Part shown: piece after piece, positions 1 to 30,293 of the stretch
How the letters are laid out: the number at the start of each line of letters is the position of its first letter
How positions within the stretch are numbered: position 1 is the first letter of the stretch
NCBI GenBank assembly: GCA_016203945.1
Contig: JACQLT010000001.1
Coordinates: 6,645-70,644 of the forward strand
DNA from: Parcubacteria group bacterium
Lineage (GTDB): Bacteria; Patescibacteriota; Minisyncoccia; Minisyncoccales; UBA10102
Length of the DNA stretch: 64,000 nucleotides
Direction: 5' to 3'
Program-made: the position numbers and the translations under genes
Notes under the pieces: model-generated
Seen by the model: the letters and a program-made list of their open reading frames with translations, nothing else
What the model was told of the DNA's origin: nothing
The model's database searches: none

Positions 1-73
1 GCTTGGCGTTCGTGCTTTGTTCTTCTGCGGGAGCTGTCTTTGAAGTTTTCGTGAAAAGTTGCGATTGCTTCAT
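1..73 (-). CDS. proS: prolyl-tRNA synthetase, first 24 codons only (gene runs off left edge)
   Basis: Reverse complement of 1-73 starts ATG and reads MKQSQLFTKTSKTAPAEEQSTNAK, a typical ProRS N-terminus; truncated so absent from ORF track. Confidence 0.5.
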   Translation of the reverse strand, partial: MKQSQLFTKTSKTAPAEEQSTNAK

Positions 74-74
74 G

Positions 75-1157
75 CTAATTTCCGGTTAAGCGACTAATAT
101 CCTGAAGGGTGACAAATAGGAGAAGAGAAATAAGGATGAGGAAGAATGCGGCATGGATGCGCTGTTCAATCCGCGCCTGCACCGGCTTCTTGCGTATCGC
201 TTCAATCGCGAGAAAGAGCAGCTTTCCTCCGTCAACCGCTGGAATAGGCAATGCGTTGAATACTGCAAGATAGACGGCAAGCAACGCCAGGAGCAAAAGG
301 AACGAAGCTAGGCCTCCGGCAAATGCGTTCTGCAGAAGGTCGAAAATGCCAACGACCCCCAGGAATTGCGTCCCTGCAGGAACTCCCCGGAAGCTCACGA
401 GGCCCGCCACCAGCTGCCATAGCCCCTGCACGACCTGCACCGTGAACTGCCAGGTGAACAGGAATCCTTTCACCGGAGCCTCATACCAGGGATATGAAAC
501 CAGGGCCGTTCTCGCAAGCGCAACCCCCAAAGGACCTTGGCCTTCGGGAACCCGCTCTCGGACGTTGAGCGTTACTTCATAGCTCTCCTTGCCAGAGCGT
601 ACACGCATGATTATATCCTGCCCTGCATGGCCCTGGGTAAACTCCTGCACCGCAGACACGGTGTTCATCTCTATGGGAAGCTCCTGAGTTCGGAATCCCT
701 CAATCACGTCCCCCACGGCTAGCCCCGCAGCAGCAGCCGGAGATCCGGGAACCACAGCAACTATCTGTACCTGAGCGTTTCCCGGATACTCATCTTGCAC
801 CTGGCTCGGAATGCCGAAGGTGGCTCCCAGAAAGGTAAGGATGAGAAACGCCACCAGCCAGAACGCAACCACGCCCGAAGCCACGATGAAGGAGCGCTGC
901 AGCACAGACTTGCCAGCATAGCTGCAGTTCCCAGCCATACCCGTTCCCTCTTCCCCTTCCAGGCGCACGAACGCACCCAGAGGAAGAAGGTTCAAGGAAT
1001 ACAGCGTTTCTCCCAAGCGCACTCCTGCAATGCGCGGAGGAAGCCCGACGCCGAACTCTTCCACCTTGACGCCGAATTTCTTTGCAACCAGAAAGTGCCC
1101 GAGCTCGTGCAGCACGACAAGCACAATCAAACTGATGAACACGATAAGTATGGTCAT
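75..1157 (-). CDS. rseP: RIP site-2 metalloprotease, M50 family (RseP-like)
   Basis: HELGH zinc motif in first TM helix, PDZ-like centre, C-terminal NALPIPAVDGG motif. Confidence 0.85.
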   Translation of the reverse strand: MTILIVFISLIVLVVLHELGHFLVAKKFGVKVEEFGVGLPPRIAGVRLGETLYSLNLLPLGAFVRLEGEEGTGMAGNCSYAGKSVLQRSFIVASGVVAFWLVAFLILTFLGATFGIPSQVQDEYPGNAQVQIVAVVPGSPAAAAGLAVGDVIEGFRTQELPIEMNTVSAVQEFTQGHAGQDIIMRVRSGKESYEVTLNVRERVPEGQGPLGVALARTALVSYPWYEAPVKGFLFTWQFTVQVVQGLWQLVAGLVSFRGVPAGTQFLGVVGIFDLLQNAFAGGLASFLLLLALLAVYLAVFNALPIPAVDGGKLLFLAIEAIRKKPVQARIEQRIHAAFFLILISLLLFVTLQDISRLTGN

Positions 1158-1708
1158 CCCTGTAATTCCTTAATTTTGCGCTCTTTCAAGGATTCAATCT
1201 TGCCCTGGTATTCGTCCACGAATTTCTGCAGCTCGTCCTTTCCCTTGAACTTTGCGTCTTCTCTGATTGTTCCTGTCCTTGACCAATTTTGCAACTGATC
1301 CCATGCGTCCTCTCTGCATTTCCGGATCGTCTTGCGCGCCTCTTCTGCTTTCATGCTGATCGCTTTTGCAAGGCTCTTGCGGAATTCCTCGGTCAGAGGA
1401 GGAAATGACAAACGGATCGTATCCTTATCCACGATAGGGGAAGCCCCCATGGAAGCCGCGAACAGCGCCTTTTCAATGGGTTCCAAATACGACCTGTCCC
1501 AGGGCTGTATGAGGAGGGAACGAGGCTCTGGGCAAGAAATTGAGGCCAGCTGTTTCAGAACCATCTTCTGGGAAAACGCCGTGACCTGAATATCCTCCAC
1601 CATGGCAGGAGAAGCGTGGGACGTGCGGACCTTGGAAAGCTCCTTTACAAAGAAGTCCAGTGCTTTTCCCATATCCTGTCGGGTTTTTACAAGAAGTTCT
1701 TTTTCCAT
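1154..1708 (-). CDS. frr: ribosome recycling factor
   Basis: 184 aa, full-length RRF-like sequence; 4-nt overlap with rseP start. Confidence 0.9.
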   Translation of the reverse strand: MEKELLVKTRQDMGKALDFFVKELSKVRTSHASPAMVEDIQVTAFSQKMVLKQLASISCPEPRSLLIQPWDRSYLEPIEKALFAASMGASPIVDKDTIRLSFPPLTEEFRKSLAKAISMKAEEARKTIRKCREDAWDQLQNWSRTGTIREDAKFKGKDELQKFVDEYQGKIESLKERKIKELQG

Positions 1709-1732
1709 GCGAAAATAAATTATTTATTTGAG
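1706..1732 (-). repeat. AT-rich start-proximal repeat (frr copy)
   Basis: catgcgaaaataaattatttatttgag, near-identical to 7161-7188. Confidence 0.8.
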
Positions 1733-1738
1733 CGCTCG

Positions 1739-2458
1739 TTAGAGGGCCAAGAGCACGTGCTCTAAAGCAAGACGGGTATTCACGTTCGTGGTGCGCAGCA
1801 TGAGCCAGGATTCTTGCATTCTCTCAAGAAGCGTCTGTAATGAAACAGGGAACGCAGATACTCTGGACTTCTCTAAGAAGAGAGTGTGAAGCCGGTCTTG
1901 CCAAGCCTCAAGCATAGAGATGACGTGCTCTGCGTCTTCCGCTTTCTCTTTCGCAAAAGCAAGGCGGCTGCGCAATGAAGATTTTTTCAGGCGGGAAAGC
2001 TCCTTTACATATGCTTCCTGCTCTTTATTTGGTTCGGCATATGGAGAAAAGAAGGGTATGTTTTGAAGCCTGGATCTGAGCGGCGAGGAGAGAAGCTGAG
2101 CCGGGTGTGCGAGCAAAAAAAACAGTACTGAGGAACTCGGCTCTTCCAGTATCTTGAGTAAAGCCGCCTGGCTCTCTTTCCCCATGTCTTGGGCTTCTTG
2201 AATAACGACGATCCTGAAAGGTGACTGGGCTGGAGTAAGCGAAGCGAAACGGCGAATCTCCTGCACCTTGGCTATCGCAGGACCCTCTGTAACCCAAAGA
2301 ACATCCCGGTGCGTATCCGTATATTCTCCCAGCAGATAGCGCAGGAGCTCCCGCACGGATTTGAGCTTGCGCTCTTTTGCGTTTCCGGACAACAGATAGG
2401 CATGGCTCATCCTCTCTTGCTCGGCTGACTTGAGGAGGAATGCTGAAGGATTTTTCAT
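1739..2458 (-). CDS. holB: DNA polymerase III delta-prime subunit
   Basis: HAYLLSG..., ALLKILEEP, SRLQ motifs; start moved to MKNPSAF (ATGA overlap with mreB stop) instead of ORF-track 2530. Confidence 0.65.
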   Translation of the reverse strand: MKNPSAFLLKSAEQERMSHAYLLSGNAKERKLKSVRELLRYLLGEYTDTHRDVLWVTEGPAIAKVQEIRRFASLTPAQSPFRIVVIQEAQDMGKESQAALLKILEEPSSSVLFFLLAHPAQLLSSPLRSRLQNIPFFSPYAEPNKEQEAYVKELSRLKKSSLRSRLAFAKEKAEDAEHVISMLEAWQDRLHTLFLEKSRVSAFPVSLQTLLERMQESWLMLRTTNVNTRLALEHVLLAL

Positions 2459-3468
2459 CGTTTTGTCATGATGCTGCGTTTGTATATCTCCAGGTTCTCC
2501 AAAACCACGCCGGTTCCCTTTGCAGCGCACAGCAGGGGTTCATCTGCGATAAAGCAGGGGACGCCGATTGCGCGCGAGATGAGTTGGTCCAGGTTCCTCA
2601 GTAGAGCCCCGCCTCCGGAAAGCACCATTCCCTTATCCATGATATCTGCGGAAAGCTCGGGGGGGGTATCATGCAGTAGAGCTTTGATGACTTGAATGAT
2701 TTCTCCGAGAGGTTCTTTCAGGGCTTCTGCGACATCGTTTGACGAAACCTTTATCGTCTTTGGCAGCCCAAGCAACAAATCCCTTCCCCGTACTTCTACG
2801 ACCTGCTCTTGCTTTTCTGGCAGCGCGCTTCCCACCTGTATCTTAATTTCTTCTGCGGTCTTCTCTCCCACGGCCACGTTATGCTTCTTCTTTATGAAGT
2901 CGGCGATTGCCTGATCGAACCGATCCCCTGCGACGCGCAAGGAAGCGAACGCAACCATCCCTCCCAGCGATATGACTGCAACCTCGGCCGTTCCTCCCCC
3001 GATGTTCACAATCATATGCCCCGAGGAAGAGTTGATGGGAATGCCAGCCCCAATGGCAGCCAAAATAGGCTCTTTTGCAATGTATGTGGCTCTGGCTCCC
3101 GCTTTGGTGGCTGCCTCGATCACGGCCCGGCGTTCGGTAGACGTGATGCCAGCTGGCACGGAAACCAATACTTCCGGCTTGAAAAACTGGAGTCCTGGCA
3201 CTACCCTTCTCAGAAAATATCTGATCATGGCGAGCGTCACGCGGAAATCCGCAATGACTCCGTCCCTCATGGGGCGGTACACGCGAATCGTATCCGGAGT
3301 GCGGCCGGTCATCTCCTTGGCGGCAGCTCCCACGGCTAAAATCCTGTTTTCGCCCAAAGACACCGCAACCACGGAGGGCTCCGAAAGAACCACTCCTTTC
3401 CCCGGAACGAACACCAGTGAGTTGCACGTTCCCAGATCAATGCCGATTTTTGTGATGAAAAATGCCAT
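2455..3468 (-). CDS. mreB: rod shape-determining protein MreB
   Basis: Actin-fold motifs IGIDLGTCNS, NIGGGTAEVAV, LSGGGALL. Confidence 0.92.
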   Translation of the reverse strand: MAFFITKIGIDLGTCNSLVFVPGKGVVLSEPSVVAVSLGENRILAVGAAAKEMTGRTPDTIRVYRPMRDGVIADFRVTLAMIRYFLRRVVPGLQFFKPEVLVSVPAGITSTERRAVIEAATKAGARATYIAKEPILAAIGAGIPINSSSGHMIVNIGGGTAEVAVISLGGMVAFASLRVAGDRFDQAIADFIKKKHNVAVGEKTAEEIKIQVGSALPEKQEQVVEVRGRDLLLGLPKTIKVSSNDVAEALKEPLGEIIQVIKALLHDTPPELSADIMDKGMVLSGGGALLRNLDQLISRAIGVPCFIADEPLLCAAKGTGVVLENLEIYKRSIMTKR

Positions 3469-3480
3469 TATAAAATAGAC

Positions 3481-4761
3481 TCATGCTTGCGTTACCCGTT
3501 TGATTCTTGCTCCCAGCTTCTGAAGGCGTTCCTCAATGCGTTCATATCCCCGATCAATCTGATAGATATTGTTAATGGTGCTCCTGCCTTTTGCGATAAG
3601 AGCGGCCATGAGAAGCGCTGCTCCCCCCCGGATGTCAAAGGTGCCGAGATCCGTTCCCTGCAGCTGGGTGGGGCCGTTGATGATGGCGCGGTGAGGGTCT
3701 GCGATGTAAATCTGGGCTCCCATTTTGTTCAATTCTTCCAAATACTTCAGCCGGCTCTCGTATAGAGGATCGTGCAGCAAGGTAGACCCTTGGGCTTGCG
3801 TAGCCAATACTCCGAATGCGTTCTGAAGATCAGATGCAATGCCGGGATAAATGAAACTCTGGATGTGTTCAATCCTGATGGACTTGGCGGGAAGCACCCG
3901 CACGTGAGCAAAGCCCTTCTTCTTGTTCCCAATCTTTACCTTGGCTCCGGCTTCCTTCAGGCGCTTGAAAAATAGATCCAGATAGCGAACTTCCACATTC
4001 TTTACCAGCACGGTTCCCTTTGTCCCGATCGCAAGCAGGATAAAAGTGGCGGCCTCAATGGGATCATACGACAGTGTGTGATGAAATCCTCTAAGATTCT
4101 TTTTGCCCTGAACCTCAAACACGTGAGGGCTAAGCTGCCGTATGGCAGCCCCCATGCTCTGTAATACCGAAACGAGTTCTTGGGTCTGGTAGTCCTGGTC
4201 TGCAATTTTAAGAAGCACCGGCGAGGACAGATGCGCCGCAAACAAGAGTGTATTGCAGGTTCCGGTCACAGAAAACTCGTTCAGCACCACCTCTCCTCCC
4301 TTTGAAGGGCGTTCTAAATTAAGGCTCACGCCCGTTTTATTTTTCCGAACCTTCGCTCCCAATTGCAAAAACGCGTCCAAGTGCGTATCAATGGGACGAG
4401 CTCCGATGATATCTCCTCCGGGCTGGGGAAGAGAAACTTTACCGAATCTGGCAAGAAGAGGGCCTAAAAAAAGGACGCTCCCGCGGAGCCGTAATACGGT
4501 CTCCCGCTTCATCAAAGAAGGGTTGAGTTTTGCGGTGTTCACGAGGATCCTGCGCTTTCTCTGCCACACGATTGTAGCTCCCATACTCTCCAATATCTCA
4601 AGCATGCGGAACACGTCTTCAATGAGCGGAAGATTGTCAATCACGCAGTCTTTTTTCGTAAGAATGGTGGCGGCTAAGACGGGAAATACTGCGTTCTTCG
4701 CCCCCCTCACCTCAATGGTTCCTCGCAAAGGCTTTCCTCCTTTGATGACGAACATTTCCAT
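3481..4761 (-). CDS. murA: UDP-N-acetylglucosamine 1-carboxyvinyltransferase
   Basis: 426 aa MurA-like; catalytic loop reads PGGDIIGARPID (Asp where E. coli has Cys115). Confidence 0.9.
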   Translation of the reverse strand: MEMFVIKGGKPLRGTIEVRGAKNAVFPVLAATILTKKDCVIDNLPLIEDVFRMLEILESMGATIVWQRKRRILVNTAKLNPSLMKRETVLRLRGSVLFLGPLLARFGKVSLPQPGGDIIGARPIDTHLDAFLQLGAKVRKNKTGVSLNLERPSKGGEVVLNEFSVTGTCNTLLFAAHLSSPVLLKIADQDYQTQELVSVLQSMGAAIRQLSPHVFEVQGKKNLRGFHHTLSYDPIEAATFILLAIGTKGTVLVKNVEVRYLDLFFKRLKEAGAKVKIGNKKKGFAHVRVLPAKSIRIEHIQSFIYPGIASDLQNAFGVLATQAQGSTLLHDPLYESRLKYLEELNKMGAQIYIADPHRAIINGPTQLQGTDLGTFDIRGGAALLMAALIAKGRSTINNIYQIDRGYERIEERLQKLGARIKRVTQA

Positions 4762-4767
4762 GCGCCT

Positions 4768-4796
4768 ATGGTATCGTGAAATATGATATAATGCAA
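4768..4796 (-). promoter_or_regulatory. murA promoter, leaderless type
   Basis: TTGCAT-17-TACCAT then 6 nt to ATG. Confidence 0.5.
4784..4792 (+). promoter_or_regulatory. extended -10 for PEGA gene, leaderless type
   Basis: TGaTATAAT, 7 nt to ATG 4800. Confidence 0.5.
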
Positions 4797-4799
4797 CAG

Positions 4800-5918
4800 A
4801 TGACCAAACGCACGAGAACTCTTCTCTTTTTCTCTTTGGTGCTGCTTTTCTCCGTGGTAGCTCCAGCCCTCATTTTGTACTCGTTGGGGTATCGCGTTGA
4901 CTGGCAAGAAGGAAGTATTGCCCAAACAGGAGGCCTTTATATTAAAACGGATCCTGCCAATGCCGTTATTTCTATCAATGGCAAGCAAGAAAAGAAAACT
5001 GATTTCCTCTTCGGCGAGCTTTTTGTGGATAACCTGCTTCCCGGAACCTACGCGGTGAAGATAGAAAAGGAAGGATACAAGCCCTGGCAGAAAAATCTTG
5101 TAGTACAAGCAAAGCAGGTGACGGAGGCGAAAAATATCATGCTATTTCCAGCCCAGACCGCCCTCAAAACACTGTTTGATTCTGTCGAGGAGGTATGGCC
5201 ATCTCCCGACTTGAACCTCCTCCTGCTTCAGCAAACATCCCCCCAAAGAGAAAGACACCTCTTGCTCTGGAACCCCAGAACCAACAAAGAGACCCCTGTA
5301 ATACAGCGGCTCACTTTTACTCAGAAAATCCAAAGCGTTCAATGGGATAAAAACGGAAAGGCCTTCCTTGTCCAGTTCCAGAAAGGAGGAGGCCAACCCC
5401 TGGTATTTAATGAGCAGGGAGAACCCTGCAAGGAATCTTTCTGTCTTGAGAACATTCTCAAGATTCAGCCCACGGACCAAGAAAAATTTCTTTCTGCCGC
5501 AGAAGAATCCTTGCGGCAGATTTTTCCTCAGATACAAGAACGAGCGCTCAGCCCTGATGAAAAGAAAATAGCCCTGACACAGGGTTCTGAGCTCTGGCTC
5601 CTCTACCTTCAGGACGACGAAGGTCAGCCCAAAAGAACTAAAGGAGAGCGGGTATTCTTAAGCAGGTTTGGAGAACAGATACAGAACCTTTCTTGGGTGA
5701 GCAACCACTATCTTCTATTGGGTATTGGCGGCGACGTTCGGATCGTAGAGATTGATGACCGAGATTCTCTGAATACGATCTCTTTGGGCTCATTCCCTGC
5801 CTTGCCTGCCTCGCCGGTAGGCGGGCCAAACCTTCGTATTTTCTGGGACAACAAAGAAAAAGTTATCTACATCCTGGGCAACGGCATCCTCTCGGTTTCA
5901 GAAAAACTCCTCCGATAG
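4800..5918 (+). CDS. membrane-anchored PEGA-domain protein
   Basis: N-terminal TM helix then PEGA-like block (YIKTDPANAVISINGK...LLPGTYAVKIEKEGYKPW); ATG 4800 preferred over GTG 4776 because TGaTATAAT lies 7 nt upstream. Confidence 0.6.
   Translation: MTKRTRTLLFFSLVLLFSVVAPALILYSLGYRVDWQEGSIAQTGGLYIKTDPANAVISINGKQEKKTDFLFGELFVDNLLPGTYAVKIEKEGYKPWQKNLVVQAKQVTEAKNIMLFPAQTALKTLFDSVEEVWPSPDLNLLLLQQTSPQRERHLLLWNPRTNKETPVIQRLTFTQKIQSVQWDKNGKAFLVQFQKGGGQPLVFNEQGEPCKESFCLENILKIQPTDQEKFLSAAEESLRQIFPQIQERALSPDEKKIALTQGSELWLLYLQDDEGQPKRTKGERVFLSRFGEQIQNLSWVSNHYLLLGIGGDVRIVEIDDRDSLNTISLGSFPALPASPVGGPNLRIFWDNKEKVIYILGNGILSVSEKLLR
5796..5825 (+). repeat. hybrid A/B-like 30-nt element in plus-strand PEGA gene
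   Basis: cctgccttgcc (first 11 nt of family B) + tgcctcgccggtaggcggg (family-A-like hairpin); encodes PALPASPVGG. Confidence 0.45.
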
Positions 5919-5930
5919 AACCCAGCTGGT

Positions 5931-5951
5931 GTTAGACATCGGATGTCTAAC
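5931..5951. terminator. bidirectional hairpin between convergent PEGA gene and rpsI
   Basis: gttagacat-cgg-atgtctaac, perfect 9-bp stem, T-rich flank. Confidence 0.55.
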
Positions 5952-5987
5952 ATTCTATATCTTGAGCGACGGTATGCTCTCGGTAAA

Positions 5988-6437
5988 CTACCGTTTCCTC
6001 CACTGCGTGGCGCGGCGGGCTCGGTGAAGTCCGAACTTCTTGCGCTCGCGCATGCGGGGATCTCTCGTTAAGAATCCAAGCGCTCTCAAGCGGCTTCTCA
6101 GCTCGGGGTCTCCTGCGACAAGAGCACGAGCTACGCCGTGACGGATGGCTTCTGCCTGAGCTGGCAATCCCCCGCCCTTCGTCAACACCTTCACCAAGAA
6201 AGAATCTTCTGTGCCGGCTTTTTCCAAAGATTCCTTGGCTACCCGCTGGAGTTCTGAATCCTGAAAGTATTGCTCCACCGGTTTCTCGTTCACCGTGAAT
6301 TTCTGCTCTTTAGTTTTTGAGGATGTAGGCCAAAGACGGACACGCGCCGTTGCGGTCTTTCTCCGTCCTACCCCCTCCAGATATTTGCCTGCCTGCGCAG
6401 GCAGGCCTTCTTTGTTGGTTTCTTTCTGCGCCGCCAT
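5988..6437 (-). CDS. rpsI: 30S ribosomal protein S9
   Basis: C-terminal ...GGGLPAQAEAIRHGVARAL...RKKFGLHRARRATQWRKR; start at MAAQKE (alternative 6452). Confidence 0.9.
   Translation of the reverse strand: MAAQKETNKEGLPAQAGKYLEGVGRRKTATARVRLWPTSSKTKEQKFTVNEKPVEQYFQDSELQRVAKESLEKAGTEDSFLVKVLTKGGGLPAQAEAIRHGVARALVAGDPELRSRLRALGFLTRDPRMRERKKFGLHRARRATQWRKR
6387..6406 (-). repeat. family B short variant (perfect 20-nt palindrome), rpsI copy
   Basis: gcctgcctgcgcaggcaggc; encodes (G)LPAQAG. Confidence 0.7.
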
Positions 6438-6441
6438 ATGG

Positions 6442-6804
6442 TTATGCCTCAATCGTCAATCGTTTGATAGTTTTGTTGCGCAGCCGGTTCTTGGGCAGCA
6501 TACCAAAGACGGCCCTTCTCAGTACTTCTGTCGGACGCTTGGCAAAAAGCGCCGCAAGAGGCTCTTTATGCAATCCTCCCATATATCCTGAGTGAGTGTA
6601 GTATATCTTCTGGCTGAGCTTCTTTCCGCTCAGCCTGATGCGCTTTGCGTTCTTCACGAGCACACGAGCCTCGCCGTCTATGTGGTGGCGAAAATCCACC
6701 CTGTTCTTGCCGCGCAGCAAAACCGCAACACGCACAGCCAACCTGCCCAAGGGCTGGTCGGTAGCGTCTACGACATGCGCGGGTTGTTTCTTGTTCTGTT
6801 CCAT
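6442..6804 (-). CDS. rplM: 50S ribosomal protein L13
   Basis: L13-like 120 aa, conserved rplM-rpsI pair. Confidence 0.9.
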   Translation of the reverse strand: MEQNKKQPAHVVDATDQPLGRLAVRVAVLLRGKNRVDFRHHIDGEARVLVKNAKRIRLSGKKLSQKIYYTHSGYMGGLHKEPLAALFAKRPTEVLRRAVFGMLPKNRLRNKTIKRLTIEA

Positions 6805-6812
6805 ACTATGCG

Positions 6813-7163
6813 TTATTGCACAAGCTCCAAAAGAGCCATGCGGGCTCCGTCGCTTCCCCGAACTCCAAGCTTGATAACACGGGTATAGCCCCCCCTCCTT
6901 TCTTTGTACCGGGGAGCTATTTCATCCAATAGTTTTTTTACCGCTCGCGCATCAAGATGCAAAGCCGCCTGCCTGCGAGCCATCATAGATCCTGTGCGCG
7001 TCTTGGTGATGAGCTTCTCTGCAAAGCGCCGCGTTTCCTTGGCCCGGGCTTCTGTCGTCTGGATGCGTCCCTTGATGATAAGGGCGCGGACAAGCGAATT
7101 CAAGAACGCCTTCCTGGGCGAGGCCATTCTTGAAAATTTTCTTCCCTGCTTTCTTTTTCGCAT
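6813..7163 (-). CDS. rplQ: 50S ribosomal protein L17
   Basis: L17-like (RKFSRMASPRKAFL...), follows rpoA. Confidence 0.9.
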   Translation of the reverse strand: MRKRKQGRKFSRMASPRKAFLNSLVRALIIKGRIQTTEARAKETRRFAEKLITKTRTGSMMARRQAALHLDARAVKKLLDEIAPRYKERRGGYTRVIKLGVRGSDGARMALLELVQ

Positions 7164-7188
7164 GCGAAAAATAAATTATTTATTTGAG
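7161..7188 (-). repeat. AT-rich start-proximal repeat (rplQ copy)
   Basis: catgcgaaaaataaattatttatttgag; includes rpoA stop; TTTTTCGCATGCGAAAAA palindrome centred on rplQ ATG. Confidence 0.8.
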
Positions 7189-7980
7189 TACCTTCTTCTT
7201 TGAAACCCGCTTCTTTCCGACAGCCGTTTTCCCCGCCTTGCTGCGAGGCAGGTTTGTCTTCTTCTCTTTCTTTTCCTCGGAGGGAGACGTTTCCTCTCTG
7301 CTCAGCCCTTCTCCGATGCGCTGGAATTGCCCCTGGAGGGTTTCGATTGCCTGCGCCAGGGCTGCTGTAGGAGTAAGCGCGCCGTCGGTCTCAATCTCTA
7401 GAATGAGCCGGTCAAAGTCGGTTCGCTCCCCAACACGCATGGCTTCCACCCGGAAGCTCACACGCCTGACAGGAGAGAAGACGGCGTCCAGGGCGATTGC
7501 TCCGATCTCTTGTTTTTCGCCTTTGCGCGCCTCCACGGCCACGTATCCGACGCCTCGCTCAATGCGCAGTTCCATGTCCAGCTCCGCGTGCTTATCCTGC
7601 AAGGTAGCGATGGCCATATCCTTGTTTATCACCTGAACCTCAGAGGAGGTTTTGATATCTCCTGCTTTTACCTTTTTCTCTCCCTTTACCTTGAGGGTCA
7701 CCGCCTGAGGTTCGTCTGAAAACATGCGAAAGCGCACCTGCTTGAGGCGCAAAAGAATGGTCACTACATCTTCTGTAACTCCGGGAATGGCCGAAAACTC
7801 ATGGGCAACACCCTTGATCTTCACCTGAGTAATGGCTGCTCCCTGCAAAGAAGAAAGGAGCACCCGCCTGAGCGTGTTCCCAACGCTCACTCCATATCCA
7901 GGATACAAAGCTTCAATCTCAAACACTCCCTTGTTCTCTGTCTGTTGCACTGTTTTTGCTGGTTGTGGAAGAGGAATCAT
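7180..7980 (-). CDS. rpoA: DNA-directed RNA polymerase alpha subunit, N-terminal domain plus Lys-rich tail (no alpha-CTD)
   Basis: alpha-NTD similarity over about 225 aa; ends in SREETSPSEEKKEKKTNLPRSKAGKTAVGKKRVSKKKVLK. Confidence 0.85.
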   Translation of the reverse strand: MIPLPQPAKTVQQTENKGVFEIEALYPGYGVSVGNTLRRVLLSSLQGAAITQVKIKGVAHEFSAIPGVTEDVVTILLRLKQVRFRMFSDEPQAVTLKVKGEKKVKAGDIKTSSEVQVINKDMAIATLQDKHAELDMELRIERGVGYVAVEARKGEKQEIGAIALDAVFSPVRRVSFRVEAMRVGERTDFDRLILEIETDGALTPTAALAQAIETLQGQFQRIGEGLSREETSPSEEKKEKKTNLPRSKAGKTAVGKKRVSKKKVLK

Positions 7981-8031
7981 ATAAATAAATTAAAGTATGA
8001 ATGATTAACGGGAATAAGCAAAGCTTTTTCT

Positions 8032-8559
8032 CTAACGAGAATAAAACTCAAAGATGAGGGGAATGTCGACTCCGGGATTGGCTTCTTGAACTGTGGGAAG
8101 CCCCTGCACGGTTCCCTTCATTTCTTCCTTGTTGAGCGCAATCCATGAAGGCGCCTCGTACTTCTTCATCGCAAGGCTCGCATTCTTAAACAAGACCTTT
8201 TCCAGCGATTGGGGGCGGATGGCGATGACATCCCCTACTTTTGTCCGGTACGAAGCGACTCCTACCTTTCTCCCGTTTACCAAGATATGTCCGTGAGAAA
8301 CCATCTGCTTTGCCTGATTACGCGTTTGCGCGAATCCCATGCGGAACACGGTGTTATCCAGTCTTCGTTCCAAATACTGGAGCAGCAGATCGCGGGAATC
8401 CCCTCCTTTCCTCGACTGCTCAACCGCTGCTTGCACATAGTTCTTAAACTGCTTCTCGCGGAGAAGGTATGAATTTCTCAAAACCTGCTTCTCTGAAAGC
8501 TGGCGTCCGTATTCTGAGGTCTGACCCGGCCTATGTTTTCGTACGACTGCGTTCTGCAT
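8032..8559 (-). CDS. rpsD: 30S ribosomal protein S4 (N-terminally short)
   Basis: SEYGRQLSEKQVLR..., S4 RNA-binding domain; 175 aa. Confidence 0.88.
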   Translation of the reverse strand: MQNAVVRKHRPGQTSEYGRQLSEKQVLRNSYLLREKQFKNYVQAAVEQSRKGGDSRDLLLQYLERRLDNTVFRMGFAQTRNQAKQMVSHGHILVNGRKVGVASYRTKVGDVIAIRPQSLEKVLFKNASLAMKKYEAPSWIALNKEEMKGTVQGLPTVQEANPGVDIPLIFEFYSR

Positions 8560-8563
8560 AGTA

Positions 8564-8998
8564 TTACACCCTTCTGACTTTGGGGGGGCGGGGCCCGTTA
8601 TGCGGGGTAGGGGTTAGGTCGGTGATAGAGCTGATTTCCAACCCTTTGGTGCCGAGCGAACGAACCGCAGAATCCCTGCCGGACCCCACGCCCCTGACAA
8701 AAACCGCCACGCGCTCAACTCCACGAAGCTTTGCTCCCTGGCTCAGTTGTTCTGCGACCTTGGAAGCCGCAAATGGGGTTGATTTCTTTGTGCCCCTGAA
8801 CCCCATGCGCCCGGCAGACACGCTCAAGACCACGTTTCCCCGCTCGTCGGTCAGGGTCATGATCGTGTTATTGTAGGAAGAATAGATATGTACGCGTCCC
8901 TCCTTAAACTTCTGCTTTCCTGAAACTGTCGTTTCCGGGGCCGCAGATACCGCCTGAGCCCCGGTTTCCCCTTTTTTAATGATTCGTTTCTTTCCCAT
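8564..8998 (-). CDS. rpsK: 30S ribosomal protein S11
   Basis: S11-like core ...NTIMTLTD..GN...SAG..GF.G..KSTPFAA. Confidence 0.92.
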   Translation of the reverse strand: MGKKRIIKKGETGAQAVSAAPETTVSGKQKFKEGRVHIYSSYNNTIMTLTDERGNVVLSVSAGRMGFRGTKKSTPFAASKVAEQLSQGAKLRGVERVAVFVRGVGSGRDSAVRSLGTKGLEISSITDLTPTPHNGPRPPKVRRV

Positions 8999-9000
8999 GA

Positions 9001-9390
9001 TTATGTGGGTGTTGCTGCGGGCTTCCTGCCAGATCCTACTGTTTTTCGTACGTTCCCTCGCACCGTCCTATTATTGGTCTTGGTACGCTGTCCGCGAGTC
9101 GGCAATCCCCTGCTGTGACGCATACCTCTCCAGGATCCGATCGCCTTCAGACGCCTGACATTCATGAGAATCTCTCTGCGCAGCTCTCCTTCAATCTTGT
9201 AGTTCTTCTCAACGTATTCTTTCAGACGGTTCAATTCGTCTGATGTGAGCTTTCCCACCTTCGTTTCCGGGGCGATACGAATCGCCTTGATGATATCCTT
9301 ACTCAACGCAGGACCCACTCCGTAAAGGTATCCTAACGCAATGTCCACCCGTTTATTGTCCGGCAATTGAATGCCGAGAAGTCGTACCAT
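9001..9390 (-). CDS. rpsM: 30S ribosomal protein S13
   Basis: MVRLLGIQLPDNKRV..., S13-like 129 aa. Confidence 0.92.
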   Translation of the reverse strand: MVRLLGIQLPDNKRVDIALGYLYGVGPALSKDIIKAIRIAPETKVGKLTSDELNRLKEYVEKNYKIEGELRREILMNVRRLKAIGSWRGMRHSRGLPTRGQRTKTNNRTVRGNVRKTVGSGRKPAATPT

Positions 9391-9444
9391 ATCGCTATGC
9401 GATATATCAAGTAAAGTTTGTTATAAAAAAATAGCAACTTGTTT

Positions 9445-9558
9445 TTAGCCTTGTCTCTGCTTATGCTTAGGATTTTTGCAGATGATATATATCTTTTGCT
9501 TTCTGCGCACCTGCTTGCAATCCTTGCATCGTTTTTTGATTGATGAACTTACCTTCAT
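9445..9558 (-). CDS. rpmJ: 50S ribosomal protein L36
   Basis: Hand translation: [37 protein letters not shown] (37 aa, below ORF-track size); ATGA overlap with infA stop. Confidence 0.9.
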
Positions 9559-9788
9559 GTTTTTCTGTATGCTCCCCGATATACGATCCTGCCCTTTGTA
9601 CGGTCATAAGGGCTGAGTTCCACGGTGACTTTGTCGCCAGGCAGAATGCGAATCTTATGCATGCGCAATTTGCCCGACACGTATCCCATCACCTCCTTCC
9701 CGTCATCCAGACGCAACTTGAAACGAAAGCTGGGCAGCGCCTCCAATACCTCTCCTTGGCATAGGAGACTTTTATCAGCTTCTTTCAT
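9555..9788 (-). CDS. infA: translation initiation factor IF-1
   Basis: S1-like IF1 sequence ...[35 protein letters not shown]. Confidence 0.93.
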
Positions 9789-9820
9789 CCTTGAATATGC
9801 CAGAATACACGCACCTTATT

Positions 9821-9849
9821 CATATACCATAGAGGCAAAAAAGGGTCAA
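9821..9849 (-). promoter_or_regulatory. infA-rpmJ-rpsM promoter
   Basis: TTGACC-17-TATATG with TGg extended -10; about 32-nt leader. Confidence 0.45.
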
Positions 9850-11118
9850 CTAGAGCGAATCCAGTCCCAGAGAAACATTGATGCGATTAAGATCAGTCGG
9901 AACTCGCCACTCCCAAAAAGGCCAAAGGGAAATAGCGAGGTTCTTCACCCCCTCTGTGGCTTCTCCCTGCCTGATTGCCATATCCGGAGCTTTCCCCTGG
10001 ACCCTGAGGGCAACATCCTGTTTTTGCACTGTCGCATACGCTTTTCCCTTTGAAAATCCTGCCAGCAGCAGAGCTCCCTTCTTGTGATCCACGTTCTTGA
10101 ACGTATACCCGCTCTGCACGGTCCTTTCAAGAATCGTTTCTCTTAGAGATAGCTCCTTTTGCATCGACCGGCTCAAAAAATCGTTGAGCGCGCTCCTGGA
10201 AAACGCTATCGCCAAAACCCGTACTTTTCCCGTCACATTGAACTGGCTCAGTTCAGCTCCCGCCTTTGCCAAAGAAGAGGTCTGCGATGACTCCACCAGA
10301 AAGGCGTCTTCCGGAATCTCATAGCCTGCAGGGAGCTGTTTTCGCAGTTCCTGTTTTGCCTGCTCCCTGAGCTCAGTTGCAATCATATCTTTGCCCCGGT
10401 CAAGATCATCCTGCGCTACGACCGTTGTTTCGCTTTTGGATCCTCCTGTCATAGGAGCTGACGACTTGCCGTAAATTGCGGTGTACAAGACAGAACCTGC
10501 AAGTCCGGGAAGTGAAAAGCTAGAAGGCCCGATATTGTAATCCTCCCCCGCTTCTGCGGCAACCACGTCAACATTCAGGGATCCGGGATCTCCGCCCTGA
10601 ACGGCTCCCTGTATCACCACGCGAGCCGTTGAGCGGAACAGCTTTCCGTCTTGGGAGACAAAGCGAGTGTTTGCGACAAGGATTTGGGGCGTGCTTGGCC
10701 TCGTATTGTATACGGTGATCACCCCTCGCGCCTGCCCTTGTTTGCTGGATTTCCCGGTTGCGGAAAACAGCCGCGTGCCGTCTTGTTGTTTTGTCAAAGG
10801 AAGCGCTTCGATAACTTCTCCTGCTTGCGCAGGCAGGATGGCTTCTTTCTTTGCGGCCAGAACCTCCTGCTCCACGAAAACTTCCCTGGAATCCGGGGTC
10901 ACCCTAATCGTTGCTTTTGCGGCAAAGAGATGGATGCCGAGTACGGAGACGAACACGAGACACAACGCTAACGCCGATAATACAAAAGACCTCGGGAGCT
11001 TACGACGAGGTTTCTGCGGCTTTGAAGGAATAAGAACCGGGGAAACCACAGGAACAGCCGGGGGCTTTTGTCGCGCGCCAGAGCGCGGAGTGATGTCAAC
11101 AAGTCTTCGATTATTCAT
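9850..11118 (-). CDS. membrane-anchored hypothetical protein (possibly baseplate-J/gp47-like fold)
   Basis: Basic Pro-rich N-terminus, one TM helix, large extracytoplasmic part; block RFVSQDGKLF...VDVVAAEAGEDYNIGP resembles baseplate J family. Confidence 0.4.
   Translation of the reverse strand: MNNRRLVDITPRSGARQKPPAVPVVSPVLIPSKPQKPRRKLPRSFVLSALALCLVFVSVLGIHLFAAKATIRVTPDSREVFVEQEVLAAKKEAILPAQAGEVIEALPLTKQQDGTRLFSATGKSSKQGQARGVITVYNTRPSTPQILVANTRFVSQDGKLFRSTARVVIQGAVQGGDPGSLNVDVVAAEAGEDYNIGPSSFSLPGLAGSVLYTAIYGKSSAPMTGGSKSETTVVAQDDLDRGKDMIATELREQAKQELRKQLPAGYEIPEDAFLVESSQTSSLAKAGAELSQFNVTGKVRVLAIAFSRSALNDFLSRSMQKELSLRETILERTVQSGYTFKNVDHKKGALLLAGFSKGKAYATVQKQDVALRVQGKAPDMAIRQGEATEGVKNLAISLWPFWEWRVPTDLNRINVSLGLDSL
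10820..10837 (-). repeat. family B short variant, hypothetical-gene copy
   Basis: cctgcttgcgcaggcagg; encodes LPAQAG. Confidence 0.65.
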
Positions 11119-11156
11119 ATCTCAATAGAAAGGAATGTTCCTGTATCATACCTTGT

Positions 11157-13034
11157 TTAGGAAGTTTTCAAAAGATGTCCGCGAATTCTCCGCACCCCGG
11201 CCGATACCGCTTCCTGTTTTCCGATGCGGAATCCCCCCACCTCTCTTGTGTGCTGCACGTGAGGGCCTCCGCACAGTTCTCTGGAGAACACGTCTCCTGT
11301 CTCAGGATTTCGGGCGGAATACACTTTCACCACGTCAGGATACTTCTCTCTCGGGGAATACAGAGCTCCCAAAGCTACCGCTTCCTGAAAGGGCATTTCC
11401 TTATATCCCATATCAAGATTCTGGCGAATCGCTTCGTTCACCAAGAACTCTATTTGTCGCACCTCTTCATCCGTCAGCTTCCGATCAAACGTAAAGTCAA
11501 AGCGGGTGCGTTCCGGGGTGATGTCAGAACCTGCCTGATGCACGCTTTCCCCTAATACCTTGCGCAGGGCAGCCTGCAGCAAATGGGTTGCCGTATGCAA
11601 ACGCGTGACAACCTTCAGTTCCTCCTCGTTCGCCGCCTTCAGCTCTCCCGTATCTAGTAAGAGCCCATGACCTCCGAACTTTCGCTCTTTCCCTGCTCTT
11701 GAAATTTCCTGATGTTTTCGAAATTCCTCATCAAATTCTTCCCTATCAATAAAAAGTGCGTGTTCGGCTAACAATTCGTTAATGAGCTCTAGTGGAAATC
11801 CATAACTCTGATATAAATCAAATGCTTCTTTTGGAGATATAGCATTGATGGTATAGGCAGACTTTTTACGAAGGTTTTTCGGAGGCCATCTAACAGCATA
11901 TTTTTTTTTGTTCTTTTCTCTTGATAAAAGCTTCTGAAACTCTGTAAGGCCCTTTTCAAGAGTCTTGCTAAATCTATCTGTCTCTTTCTGTAAAACTTCT
12001 AAAATAACCGACTTTTCTTCTCGTAAATTATTATAGTCAGGAACCTTACCATATATTCGTATGATTTCTTCTGCAGGACTTAAATAAAATTTTGAATCTA
12101 ACCCAGCTCCGATGTACTTATAGTGATTAAGCATGGCTCGCCTTATTAATCTCCGCAAAATATAACCCGCTTCTTTATTTGAGGGTCTTATTCCGTCTCC
12201 GATCAAAAATATACTGGCACGTAGGTGATCGGCAATAACACGGAGCTTTTCTATTGGTTTATCTCCAATAATTTCAATGATTGAACTGAAAATTGACATA
12301 AACAAATCTGTCTCGAATATATTCTTCTTGCCTTGGACAACCATCGCCAGTCTTTCTAACCCCATGCCGGTATCTACTCCCGGCTTCTCTAGCTTCCGCA
12401 ACTTCTTGTCCTTTGAGCAGTAGTACTCGTTGAATACGATGTTCCAGACCTCGGTGTTGTTGATATAGAGCTCGGTAGTGGGACCGCAGGGTCCCTCAGC
12501 TCCTGTGGGCCCCCAGAAGTTGTCCTCTCTCCCCTCCTCTCTGATATCCTTGACGCCAAGCTCACTCCAGAACTTTTTTGACTCCTCATCTCTGGGAACC
12601 TCCTTGTCTCCCCCGAACACGGTCACATACTGAATCTTCAACCCAATTTCTTTCAAGAACTCATGGGCAAGCCGTATCGCCTCCTCCTTGAAGTATCCGC
12701 CAAAAGAGAAGTTTCCAAGCATCTCAAAGAAGGTGAGGTGGGTCTCGTCTCCGACGCTGTCAATGTCTGAGGTGCGGAAGGATTTTTGAATGGATACCGC
12801 GTTCCTGCTTCCCAGGAACTTCCCTCCCAAGGTTTGATGAGGAGAAGACATGGGATCTGCCTCTCCCGTGTAATAGGGCTTAAACTGCTGCATGCCTGCC
12901 GTGGTAAGAAGCACAGAGGCGTCATCTGGAACCAAAGAAGACGAGGGCACAATGGTGTGCTTCCCGCCCGTGGCGGGTCCGCCTTGGGCGGAAAAAAACT
13001 CCAAAAATCTCCTGCGCAACTCCTGCGACTCCAT
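11157..13034 (-). CDS. alaS: alanyl-tRNA synthetase, short form (625 aa, no C-Ala domain)
   Basis: TAGMQQFKP, FEMLGNFSFGGYFK, GMGLERL, editing-domain HTATHLL and CGGPH motifs. Confidence 0.9.
   Translation of the reverse strand: MESQELRRRFLEFFSAQGGPATGGKHTIVPSSSLVPDDASVLLTTAGMQQFKPYYTGEADPMSSPHQTLGGKFLGSRNAVSIQKSFRTSDIDSVGDETHLTFFEMLGNFSFGGYFKEEAIRLAHEFLKEIGLKIQYVTVFGGDKEVPRDEESKKFWSELGVKDIREEGREDNFWGPTGAEGPCGPTTELYINNTEVWNIVFNEYYCSKDKKLRKLEKPGVDTGMGLERLAMVVQGKKNIFETDLFMSIFSSIIEIIGDKPIEKLRVIADHLRASIFLIGDGIRPSNKEAGYILRRLIRRAMLNHYKYIGAGLDSKFYLSPAEEIIRIYGKVPDYNNLREEKSVILEVLQKETDRFSKTLEKGLTEFQKLLSREKNKKKYAVRWPPKNLRKKSAYTINAISPKEAFDLYQSYGFPLELINELLAEHALFIDREEFDEEFRKHQEISRAGKERKFGGHGLLLDTGELKAANEEELKVVTRLHTATHLLQAALRKVLGESVHQAGSDITPERTRFDFTFDRKLTDEEVRQIEFLVNEAIRQNLDMGYKEMPFQEAVALGALYSPREKYPDVVKVYSARNPETGDVFSRELCGGPHVQHTREVGGFRIGKQEAVSAGVRRIRGHLLKTS
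12963..12992 (-). repeat. family A 30-nt in-frame double-hairpin element, alaS copy
   Basis: cccgcccgtggcggg|tccgccttgggcgga; encodes SAQGGPATGG. Confidence 0.8.
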
Positions 13035-13040
13035 GCATTG

Positions 13041-13069
13041 AGTATATCATTTATCCTTGACTCGGTTAA
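13041..13069 (-). promoter_or_regulatory. alaS promoter, leaderless type
   Basis: TTAACC-17-TATACT (TGa extended), 6 nt to ATG. Confidence 0.45.
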
Positions 13070-13070
13070 G

Positions 13071-13079
13071 TTATCCACA
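13071..13079 (+). promoter_or_regulatory. consensus DnaA box
   Basis: TTATCCACA, abuts alaS -35. Confidence 0.3.
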
Positions 13080-13108
13080 CCTTGACTTAGCCAAGGATAT
13101 ACGACCGT

Positions 13109-13149
13109 AAAAGAAAGGGGGGTCAGAGCCACTGATGTGGATAACCCCC
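13109..13149 (-). terminator. terminator-like hairpin after secreted-protein gene
   Basis: GGGGGT...ACCCCC with inner CCAC/GTGG, followed by TTTCTTTT on minus strand. Confidence 0.4.
13136..13144 (-). promoter_or_regulatory. consensus DnaA box (inverted)
   Basis: tgtggataa on plus strand; inside terminator-like loop. Confidence 0.25.
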
Positions 13150-13184
13150 TCGTTGCGAACTCCTGAGAGTCCTTAAGTTGATGA

Positions 13185-14234
13185 TTAGCGCTGCAGCGCT
13201 CCGGCGACGATATCTCCCCGGAAGATGACGTCAGCCCGGTGATACGGACCGATGCCGTTGATTCCCCAAGCAAGGTTGCCAGGGCTCGAATCGTCAAGCC
13301 GCACCTGGATTGCGTCGCCCAGATCGTCAAGATCGGTCGTGTCTCCGTACAGGTAGATCCTTCTCGTTTGCTGGGCTGGCACAACGAGTTCACCAAAACT
13401 GCCGAAGGAACTGCCGAAGTAAATCTCCACTGCGAGATCTGCTTCGTTTTCTCTGATCCCCACCAGAAGCTTGTCTCCAAGCCTGATTCCGTATTCGTCC
13501 CTCAAGACGAATCCCATGTGAGTTTTGGTTTGCTTGGAGATCGATCTGGTGATCCAAAACGTCACGTAGTCCAATTCCTGGAACGTTACGCTTTGGGTTC
13601 CCACTGCCGTGATGTCAAAGACGGCAAGCAGCGTATTGGAAGAAGGGGTGAGCGTTCCGGAAGGAGTGGCCGAGTTTATGGTGAACCTCGGATAGCTCCC
13701 GAAGTACCGATGCGTGGGACCGGGCACCGCATGAAAGTCCCATACCCTCTGGGATGGGGTGGTGCCCATCGCCCCGATGAGGCTCACCTCGATTGGCACC
13801 TCATTGTCTAATGGCGATACCATGGGATAGGTTTCGCCAAGAACCGTGATAGCCTTGAAACTCCCTGCTGGCACCGAAAGCACGCCGTCCTCAAAGTTTA
13901 GTTTGATGACTTGAGGAGAGCTTCCCCCGACTGCAAATTCTTTGATGAGATTGCCAGCGTGGTAGATGCTGAGCTTCGCTATATGCTCGCTGCCGACCAC
14001 GCGGAATACGAGCATAGTCACAGCCACGTTCTCGTTGCCGGCGCTCAGGATGAACGATGCCAAAGGGATATTCATATATCCTGCTGGCACCAGGCTGCTT
14101 ACGGATTCGGCCCGGAAATCCCGCTCCATGCTTAACGAACGGGCTCTCGTTCCCGCTCCCATTGCCGTGGACGCGGGAAGCATCACAGCTAGAACAGCGA
14201 GAATTGCGACCAGGACTGCTAGTTTCTTAAACAC
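13185..14234 (-). CDS. secreted hypothetical protein (two beta-rich repeats)
   Basis: GTG at 14234 preceded by AGAGGAGGG; signal-like FKKLAVLVAILAVLAVMLPASTAMG; ORF-track start 14324 judged too long. Confidence 0.5.
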   Translation of the reverse strand: MFKKLAVLVAILAVLAVMLPASTAMGAGTRARSLSMERDFRAESVSSLVPAGYMNIPLASFILSAGNENVAVTMLVFRVVGSEHIAKLSIYHAGNLIKEFAVGGSSPQVIKLNFEDGVLSVPAGSFKAITVLGETYPMVSPLDNEVPIEVSLIGAMGTTPSQRVWDFHAVPGPTHRYFGSYPRFTINSATPSGTLTPSSNTLLAVFDITAVGTQSVTFQELDYVTFWITRSISKQTKTHMGFVLRDEYGIRLGDKLLVGIRENEADLAVEIYFGSSFGSFGELVVPAQQTRRIYLYGDTTDLDDLGDAIQVRLDDSSPGNLAWGINGIGPYHRADVIFRGDIVAGALQR

Positions 14235-14316
14235 GGGAAATCCCTCCTCTATGCTATCTACATAGGGTTGTAGTTGCTGAATAGCACAATATCGTAAAAC
14301 GTTGGATCTGTCAATA

Positions 14317-15357
14317 TTAGACAATAACGCCGCCTGCGATGAGTTGGGTATCCTGATAGAGAGCCGCCACTTGGCCTGGAGTAATGGCGCGCTGAGGGGT
14401 TTGGAACGTAAGCTTGTACGCGTCCCCTATCTTGGAAAGCGTGGCTGGGGCCAGATGCTGGCGATATCTAATACGCGCATCCACCGAGATGAGATTCTTT
14501 CTCGTGTCCCCAGAAAGCCAGTTTATGTCCCGCAGTATCAGCTCTTTCTGATACAATCCCTCTTCGTTCTTGCTCACTACGAGAATATTGCGATCAATAT
14601 CCTTTTGCACGACGTAGTACGGACCCCCTCCCAATCCAATACCCTTTCTTTGCCCAATGGTGTAATACTGCGCTCCCTCGTGCGTTCCGAGCACGGTTCC
14701 CTGAACATCTATGATCTTCCCTGGCTTCACGGGCAAATAGTGCTTTAAGAAATCAACGACATCCACTTTTCCAACGAAACAAATGCCCTGGCTGTCTTTA
14801 CGTTCCGCATTCGGCAGCCCGAACCTCCTCGCCAGCTCCCGAACCTGAGGCTTCGTATGTTCCCCTATCGGAAACAACACCTTGCTCAGCACCTCTGGCT
14901 TGATAAACGAGAGGAAGTACGACTGATCTTTGTTTTCATCAACGGCCTCCCGCAGCTTTCCGTCCTTCAGGCGGGCATAGTGGCCGGTTGCGACGTATGC
15001 GGCTCCGAGCTGTATTGCCTTTTCAAAGAACAAGCCGAATTTGATTTCCTTGTTGCACATGGCATCAGGATTCGGAGTAATCCCTTTGCGGTAGCCTTCC
15101 AAGAGATAATCAACGACCCGTTTCTTGTACTCATCAATGAAGTTCACGGCGTAAAAGGGAATGTTCAGATGAGAAGCCGCCAGGCGAGCCATGCGCTCGT
15201 CTTCTTTGCTCGTGCACGCAGGAGACAATTCGGCCGACCAGCACTTCATGAAGATTCCGACAACCTCAAAACCGGCCTTCTTGAGCAAGGCCGCGGCTAC
15301 CGAAGAATCCACGCCTCCCGACATGGCGACTATAATTTTTGATCGCTTCTTGATCAT
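14317..15357 (-). CDS. mnmA: tRNA 2-thiouridine(34) synthase
   Basis: PP-loop AMSGGVDSSV, full-length MnmA/TrmU similarity. Confidence 0.9.
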   Translation of the reverse strand: MIKKRSKIIVAMSGGVDSSVAAALLKKAGFEVVGIFMKCWSAELSPACTSKEDERMARLAASHLNIPFYAVNFIDEYKKRVVDYLLEGYRKGITPNPDAMCNKEIKFGLFFEKAIQLGAAYVATGHYARLKDGKLREAVDENKDQSYFLSFIKPEVLSKVLFPIGEHTKPQVRELARRFGLPNAERKDSQGICFVGKVDVVDFLKHYLPVKPGKIIDVQGTVLGTHEGAQYYTIGQRKGIGLGGGPYYVVQKDIDRNILVVSKNEEGLYQKELILRDINWLSGDTRKNLISVDARIRYRQHLAPATLSKIGDAYKLTFQTPQRAITPGQVAALYQDTQLIAGGVIV

Positions 15358-15365
15358 AGGAAGGT

Positions 15366-15845: not shown

Positions 15846-15859
15846 ACAACTCTCTGAGC

Positions 15860-16561: not shown

Positions 16562-16563
16562 AT

Positions 16564-18783: not shown

Positions 18784-18801
18784 TACGCTATTGTAGCAAA
18801 A

Positions 18802-30196: not shown

Positions 30197-30202
30197 CAAA
30201 CC

Positions 30203-30231: not shown

Positions 30232-30293
30232 CACCTTCTTGCACCTTCTTGTCCGGGACAAGGAAAAACAAGGAAAAAAACAAGGATAGAACC

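Follow-up and report, generated by a model that had tools for sequence, protein, structure and literature searches.

In the 64-kb window, which is the whole stretch of Parcubacteria DNA analyzed here, 15 genes carry a -10-like hexamer 6-10 nt before the ATG. These hexamers probably belong to sigma-70-type promoters that abut the start codons, so that the transcripts would start at the A of the ATG or 1-4 nt before it. A sequence-only reading of the window had proposed that operon-first genes are transcribed from or beside the A of the ATG. This proposal is supported by the position of the boxes, their promoter context, the fixed start codons, conservation in relatives and an annotation-free test.

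The window has a G+C content of ~51% and contains ~90 genes, nearly all of which lie on the minus strand. The gene content includes a large ribosomal-protein cluster, the ATP synthase operon and one tRNA, and a search for rRNA in the window found none. The gene model combines a dicodon score with manual curation, in which rpmJ, rpsS and rpsN were added, antisense shadow ORFs were dropped and the M50/rpmB region was resolved. The murA protein is 87-88% identical to its counterparts in two Parcubacteria-type MAGs, one of which is recorded as Saccharibacteria, and 64-67% identical to those of groundwater Candidatus Wildermuthbacteria, a clade within the Parcubacteria group of Patescibacteria/CPR. 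The same DNA was found in three Logan assemblies from groundwater samples (SRR12113430, SRR12113420 and SRR12113383). Pfam searches bear out the gene names for the EPSP_synthase family (murA), PEGA, class II alanyl-tRNA synthetase, Peptidase_M50, L28, thioredoxin-reductase-type Pyr_redox_2, Glutaredoxin, F420_ligase (the cofE-like gene) and DUF5671, and the Pfam search of the 49952 gene gave no match. The S19 protein (27333-27716, minus) consists of 127 aa with an Ala/Gly/Ser-rich C-terminal tail, which agrees with the enlarged uS19 reported in CPR bacteria (PMC9297842). Between fusA and tuf, a 74-aa ORF (MDLKDVKHLIRNGERVIIVEDGKPTLVILPFEEY...; 31963-32187, minus) begins 1 nt past the fusA stop, and such an ORF is unusual inside the str operon.

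The ten promoter/ATG strings that the sequence-only reading had listed are all present in the window exactly as written. Two of them occupy the intergenic region between the divergent murA and PEGA genes (4762-4799, both strands). The 38 nt that had been said to pack two divergent promoters are the entire gap between the ATG at 4761 (minus) and the ATG at 4800 (plus), and they carry both. The murA arrangement (4759-4796, minus) reads TTGCAT-17-TACCAT-6-ATG, with the -35 element at 4791-4796, the -10 element at 4768-4773 and the ATG at 4761. The PEGA arrangement (4784-4802, plus) reads TGaTATAAT-7-ATG, with the -10 element at 4787-4792 and the ATG at 4800. Each promoter overlaps the other, the murA -35 with the PEGA -10 and the murA -10 with the zone of the PEGA -35. 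A second divergent pair with a 38-nt gap (49914-49951) is formed by the cofE-like gene of the F420_ligase family (49911-49928, minus; TGcTACGAT-6-ATG, ATG at 49913) and the 49952 gene (49934-49954, plus; TGgTATAAT-9-ATG). Because the promoters physically overlap in both 38-nt pairs, we infer that the two promoters of a pair cannot be occupied simultaneously. Divergent gaps of ~38 nt are not a general rule among the relatives.

The remaining listed genes display the same layout. On the minus strand, it is found at alaS (13032-13049; TGaTATACT-6-ATG, ATG at 13034), for which a generic scanner finds the same promoter, at the M50 peptidase gene (35987-36026; TTGCTT-17-TATACT-8-ATG, ATG at 35989), at trxB (41933-41948; TATAAT-7-ATG, ATG at 41935), at the glutaredoxin gene (42210-42250; TTGACA-17-TATCAT-9-ATG, ATG at 42212) and at the DUF5671 gene (58781-58817; TTGCGG-16-TACACT-6-ATG, ATG at 58783). 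The rpmB gene for L28 (36045-36083, plus) is preceded by TTGCGA-17-TGaTATAAT-7 with the ATG at 36081. Five additional genes with short upstream gaps share this layout, raising the total to 15, and all five are located on the minus strand. They comprise a glycosyltransferase-like gene (18781-18798; TGcTACAAT-6-ATG, ATG at 18783) that follows map after an 18-nt gap and is matched by the generic scanner, the 39154 gene (39152-39168; TACGAT-8-ATG), which starts 6 nt past the upstream stop, the 53261 gene (53259-53280; TGcTACAAT-10-ATG), a borderline case that has an ATGA overlap with the upstream stop, the 54914 gene (54912-54951; TTGGTC-17-TAAAAT-8-ATG) and the 56109 gene (56107-56147; TTGAAT-17-TATAGT-9-ATG). 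The box of the 39154 gene has neither a -35 element nor a TGn extension and is the weakest of the 15. The spacer between box and ATG measures 6 nt in five genes, 7 nt in three, 8 nt in three, 9 nt in three and 10 nt in one. Spacers of 6-7 nt are found at murA, alaS, the cofE-like gene, the DUF5671 gene, the 18783 gene, the PEGA gene, rpmB and trxB, and spacers of 8-10 nt at the M50 and glutaredoxin genes and the 49952, 39154, 54914, 56109 and 53261 genes. The start codon is ATG in all 15.

The start codons are fixed to a large part by the proteins that they open. In seven of the ten listed genes, the proposed ATG is the first start codon of the ORF. In six genes (murA, alaS, L28, TrxB, glutaredoxin and cofE-like), the match to the Pfam profile already sets in at residue 3-9, which rules out a downstream start. 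The EPSP_synthase profile starts at residue 7 of murA, and profile position 1 corresponds to residue 5 of alaS (tRNA-synt_2c), residue 3 of rpmB (Ribosomal_L28) and residue 3 of trxB (Pyr_redox_2). The start of the PEGA gene had been assigned to 4800, and this assignment is supported by the closest relative (L004), which has ATA in place of the ATG at 4791 and keeps TGaTATCAT-7-ATG. Public gene calls put the PEGA start at that ATG 4791, inside the -10 box, and thereby exemplify how gene callers tuned to the Shine-Dalgarno (SD) sequence misplace starts in such genomes. For the DUF5671 gene, a start at 58783 is plausible given its fit to the promoter, and two TTG codons in the same frame, at 58804 and 58801, are located upstream of the box. 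Exact-product look-ups for PEGA from 4800, for DUF5671 from 58783 and for a 218-aa version of DUF5671 all returned no record.

The arrangement is retained at orthologous genes. Among the murA orthologs of 19 relatives, nearly all display TTGCAA or TTGCCA, a 17-nt interval and TAnnnT, followed by 6-14 nt to the ATG (21 nt in one of them), and the rest of the upstream sequence diverges. The commonest spacer of these orthologs is 11 nt. In ten distinct trxB orthologs (68-74% identity), the box reads TATAAT, TACAAT or TACGAT, in many cases with a TG extension, and is separated from the ATG by 6, 7 or 9 nt. The N-termini of the murA and trxB orthologs align to the same ATG. Single orthologs of other genes likewise carry a box near the ATG, with TGaTATACT-6-ATG at the M50 gene and TGgTACATT-8-ATG at rpmB in L106, and TGgTAGGAT-6-ATG at the 49952 gene in L084. 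The glutaredoxin ortholog in L084 keeps TTGACA-17-TATCAT with a spacer of 12 nt.

A positional scan for TANNNT, which had been put forward as a check, was run on the window and on ~1.5 Mb from relatives and revealed enrichment at 6-9 nt. In the relatives, for which crude automatic gene calls were used, 27-28% of the first genes have TANNNT at 6-9 nt versus 8-14% in background windows, and this excess covers only ~15-20% of the crudely called first genes. A test that is free of annotation was performed on the same ~1.5 Mb by counting each ATG at the head of an ORF of 60 aa or more downstream of TTGNNN-N17-TANNNT. The ATG rate per offset is 0.19% at 0-5 nt, 1.82% at 6-9 nt and 0.52% at 10-40 nt (P = 3e-21). 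If transcription begins at the ATG, the geometry of RNA polymerase would produce just such a step, with hardly any ATGs closer than 6 nt and a sharp rise at that distance.

The genes of the window make little use of the SD sequence. An SD core (GGAG or GAGG 4-13 nt upstream) precedes only 7 of the 90 window genes (8%), versus 41 of 65 genes (63%) in the syntenic E. coli region, which was scored in the same way using RefSeq starts. Conversely, TANNNT at 6-9 nt is found at 26 of the 90 window genes versus 2 of 65 genes in the E. coli control. Among relatives from the Parcubacteria (L004-L108), 5-6.5% of the genes have an SD core. The sequence-only reading had described the listed genes as lacking an SD sequence, and indeed none of the ten has an SD core between box and ATG; the spacers of all 15 genes are likewise free of it. 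The sole SD core near the ten listed genes is the GAGG of the DUF5671 gene, which lies on the upstream side of the -10 element at 12 nt from the ATG. Only two genes of the window must start at GTG (14234 and 36927, both minus). One product is a secreted protein and the other a P-loop protein resembling thymidylate kinase, and GGAGG lies 8 nt before each of the two starts. The SD sequence seems to be kept for leadered genes with a non-AUG start.

Does the host retain the anti-SD sequence? In Wildermuthbacteria-like relatives, GGAGG is enriched eightfold at the SD position, yet it is found at only 3.5% of the genes. Because of this enrichment and the two GGAGG-GTG genes, the anti-SD sequence is probably still present in the host and used by a small minority of genes; the two GGAGG-GTG genes specifically suggest that the host 16S rRNA keeps CCUCC. 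A search for the 16S 3' end in 105 Parcubacteria-related loci found none. The 16S 3' end was located in four distant loci, with CCTCC intact (L109, ~19640-19690; L112, ~16990; L125, ~17543-17590; L131, ~353-400). These are distant trxB loci (40-46% identity) that contain an intact GGATCACCTCCTTTC near trxB. Even so, only 5-22% of their genes have an SD core, and a retained anti-SD sequence therefore need not mean frequent SD use.

Genes inside operons are closely packed. The 81 same-strand junctions include 19 ATGA overlaps, 4 other overlaps and 25 gaps of 0-10 nt, and the next ATG overlaps the stop codon or lies within 10 nt of it at 48 junctions. The claim that internal genes are coupled by overlaps holds for ATGA, which occurs at 19 of the 81 junctions, but not for TAATG, given that no junction has a -1 overlap (0/81).

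Could the arrangement have arisen by chance from AT-rich intergenic DNA and selective reading by eye? TANNNT is a loose motif, and the total number of promoter-like sequences is not above that in shuffles: a generic promoter/terminator scanner applied to positions 1-20000 found 11 promoter-like matches versus 14 expected. With the overall promoter count at the chance level, the signal resides only in position. Eleven of the 25 candidate first genes, which either follow a gap of 35 nt or more or have a divergent neighbor, carry TANNNT 6-9 nt before the ATG, whereas shuffled upstream sequences yield a mean of 2.8 (P = 5e-5), and across the 1974 ATG triplets in the whole window the rate is 4.4%. 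Promoter-like matches that end 5-10 nt before a gene start number 11 of 117 on both strands versus 0.49 expected (Poisson P = 7e-12). A TGn extension or a TTGnnn -35 element at 16-18 nt accompanies 13 of the 15 boxes but only 12.8% of the 1166 TANNNT sequences in the window (P = 2e-10). Because of this context, the 15 boxes look like real sigma-70 promoters rather than AT-rich noise. Shuffling, base rate, context and the annotation-free test reject chance at P values of 5e-5 to 3e-21, the E. coli control has only 2 of 65 genes with the box and the box is conserved at orthologous genes. The probability that the pattern reflects chance is accordingly minimal.

A signal of another kind is an unlikely but more serious explanation, in which the hexamers would be an AT-rich non-SD translation-initiation signal in longer leaders, of the Bacteroidetes type (GeneMarkS-2 group B), and not promoters. 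The genome is SD-poor, and internal genes also have TANNNT at 6-9 nt (15/64, 23%), although part of this internal signal is due to TAA stop codons and AT-rich junctions. An AT-rich start and a pyrimidine at -1 are, moreover, common to all genes. G+C content is 39-41% over the initial 30 nt of coding sequences, compared with 51% in the window, and the -1 pyrimidine is found at 13 of the 15 promoter-abutting genes, 64 of the 75 others and thus 77 of all 90. The two features represent a genome-wide start context that is independent of promoter class, and the -1 pyrimidine was rejected as support for a leaderless class since it is equally common in other genes. The folding energy of the 5'-proximal region (first 25, 40 or 60 nt) was no different in the 15 genes than in the other genes. 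A translation signal, however, would not account for the TGn or TTGnnn elements at exact promoter spacing in 13 of the 15 boxes or for the higher enrichment at first genes than at internal genes (44%, 11/25, versus 23%). It also conflicts with the two 38-nt divergent gaps, which offer no room for other promoters outside coding sequence, and with the sharp onset at offset 6 after near nil at 0-5 nt, which is typical of polymerase geometry and not of ribosome binding. Alternatively, the promoters may be real and translation may begin at a downstream in-frame codon, in which case ordinary leaders would be hidden in presumed coding sequence. The N-termini of the PEGA, DUF5671, M50 and 49952 genes, which are not pinned by a conserved domain, would allow such a shift. 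In murA, alaS, rpmB, trxB, glutaredoxin and the cofE-like gene, however, it would truncate the Pfam domain, and ortholog N-termini align to the same ATG, making a downstream start very improbable.

Not all promoters of the window abut a start codon. Leadered promoters follow TTGACA-17-TAnnnT and are located before rplC, the 40180 and 14234 genes and tuf. Since they share the same consensus, the host polymerase evidently reads E. coli-like signals. The promoter-abutting type accounts for ~15 of ~27 predicted promoters, and the rest have leaders of ~10 to ~185 nt. The dominance that the sequence-only reading had attributed to the promoter-abutting type therefore amounts to approximately half of the predicted promoters and does not extend to all of them.

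Several elements accompany the leadered and other genes. The rpsJ-rplC spacer (30102-30359, minus) is 258 nt long and contains an inverted repeat and a terminator-like GC hairpin with a T run, followed by a TTGACA-17-TACACT consensus promoter and a ~95-nt leader. At its end, immediately ahead of the rplC ATG, the leader carries another hairpin with a T run, and it could regulate the rplC operon in the manner of an attenuator; an Rfam search of this spacer gave no match. A 223-nt non-coding gap (38344-38566) precedes the 38343 gene and contains TTGACC-16-TACAAT 191 nt upstream of the ATG. The gap implies a long leader or an unrecognized element, and it also has no match in an Rfam search. A near-identical AT-rich palindromic element, CTCAAATAAATAATTTATTTT(T)CGCATG, is located before frr and rplQ (1706-1732 and 7161-7188; minus) and includes the upstream stop codons. 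In the 37067-37150 region (plus), a tRNA-Pro(GGG) gene with encoded CCA ends at 37140, and a 208-aa ORF starts with an ATG at 37148. The 7 nt between them therefore leave no room for a promoter, and 3' processing of the tRNA would yield an mRNA with a 7-nt leader for the 208-aa ORF. The adjacency of tRNA-Pro and ATG is not kept in L106 or L063.

We propose that the promoter-abutting genes are expressed as follows. The promoters would consist of a -10 element, TAnnnT, that is aided by a TTGnnn -35 element at 16-17 nt or by a TGn extension. According to E. coli rules, transcription is predicted to start at or beside the A in the eight genes with 6-7 nt spacers, which would be strictly leaderless, and to produce leaders of 1-4 nt in the seven genes with 8-10 nt spacers. 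Given that 7 of the 15 spacers are 8-10 nt long and that murA orthologs commonly have 11 nt, "very short leader" may describe many cases better than "leaderless". Such mRNAs would have no room for an SD sequence and therefore would have to use 5'-end-dependent, SD-independent initiation on the AUG. On the downstream cistrons, which lack an SD sequence, ribosomes would terminate and then restart, since at 48 of 81 junctions they meet the next ATG either in an overlap with the stop (ATGA) or no more than 10 nt from it. The start sites of transcription, the way in which ribosomes are recruited and the coupling by restart are all inferred here from what has been established for leaderless genes (PMC6028130, PMC3898074, PMC4633059 and PMC8459731).

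The layout itself is a known one. Bacterial leaderless genes are recognized in published work by a Pribnow box that lies 6-8 nt away from the start codon (PMC6028130). Genomes of this kind, designated group C by GeneMarkS-2, are frequent in Actinobacteria and Deinococcus-Thermus (PMC6028130), where a quarter to two thirds of the transcripts are leaderless (PMC6028130, PMC3898074 and PMC4633059). Similar to Mycobacterium tuberculosis, M. smegmatis and Deinococcus deserti, the window has a -10 element near the start of first genes, no SD sequence and a 5' AUG, which is predicted here, and it exhibits the group C geometry in ~15 of ~27 predicted promoters. The window differs from group C in four respects. 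The host lineage is Parcubacteria of the Wildermuthbacteria-like CPR type and not Actinobacteria or Deinococcus. The remaining first genes and the internal genes carry a ribosome-binding site in group C, as in M. tuberculosis (PMC6028130), whereas only 7 of the 90 window genes have an SD core. The spacers extend to 9-10 nt in the window and to 11-12 nt in murA orthologs, compared with 6-8 nt in group C. Finally, the start sites of the window are predictions from sequence. The layout corresponds to the known group C signature, from which the window departs in lineage and in the near absence of SD sequences at the remaining genes.

Other groups share single features with the window. In archaeal leaderless expression (haloarchaea and Sulfolobus; group D), many operons are transcribed from the start codon and translated independently of SD, as proposed for the window. 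However, the archaeal promoter box is located ~26 nt upstream (PMC6028130), whereas the window contains bacterial -10/-35 or extended -10 elements, and its spacer histogram has no peak at 24-28 nt, where an archaeal-type box would lie. Group B of the Bacteroidetes/FCB combines a motif with very low genome-wide SD use, and the window is similarly SD-poor. In group B, leadered mRNAs have the motif ahead of first and internal genes alike, so that it cannot be a promoter (PMC6028130). The window motif, unlike that of group B, has a promoter context and is enriched at first genes. At the internal genes of the window, 23% of which have TANNNT at 6-9 nt, an AT-rich initiation signal may nevertheless play a part.

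In the clade of the window, Tsurumaki et al. (2022) detected the anti-SD motif in only 48% of Parcubacteria and found bS21 to be often absent (PMC9297842). Their analysis of ribosomal components carries the same implication as the present study, namely, that the SD helix plays little or no part. It makes no mention of leaderless mRNAs and does not state how mRNAs are selected, and a literature search for leaderless expression in combination with Patescibacteria, CPR or Parcubacteria found no substantive report. As a tentative extension to the lineage, which we consider possible and somewhat doubtful, Wildermuthbacteria-like Parcubacteria may have largely given up SD-based initiation and may rely either on starts at the 5' end, with 0-4 nt before the AUG in approximately half of the transcription units, or on restart.

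The 38-nt bidirectional promoters provide compact parts for tests in heterologous hosts. If the tentative extension to Wildermuthbacteria-like Parcubacteria is true, they would constitute a further large bacterial lineage with frequent leaderless expression beyond Actinobacteria and Deinococcus-Thermus. Their mode of initiation would also supply the mechanism that has so far been missing beside the anti-SD and bS21 losses described for Parcubacteria (PMC9297842). The leaderless-plus-restart layout offers a concrete and testable answer to the question of how SD-poor Parcubacteria select their start codons.
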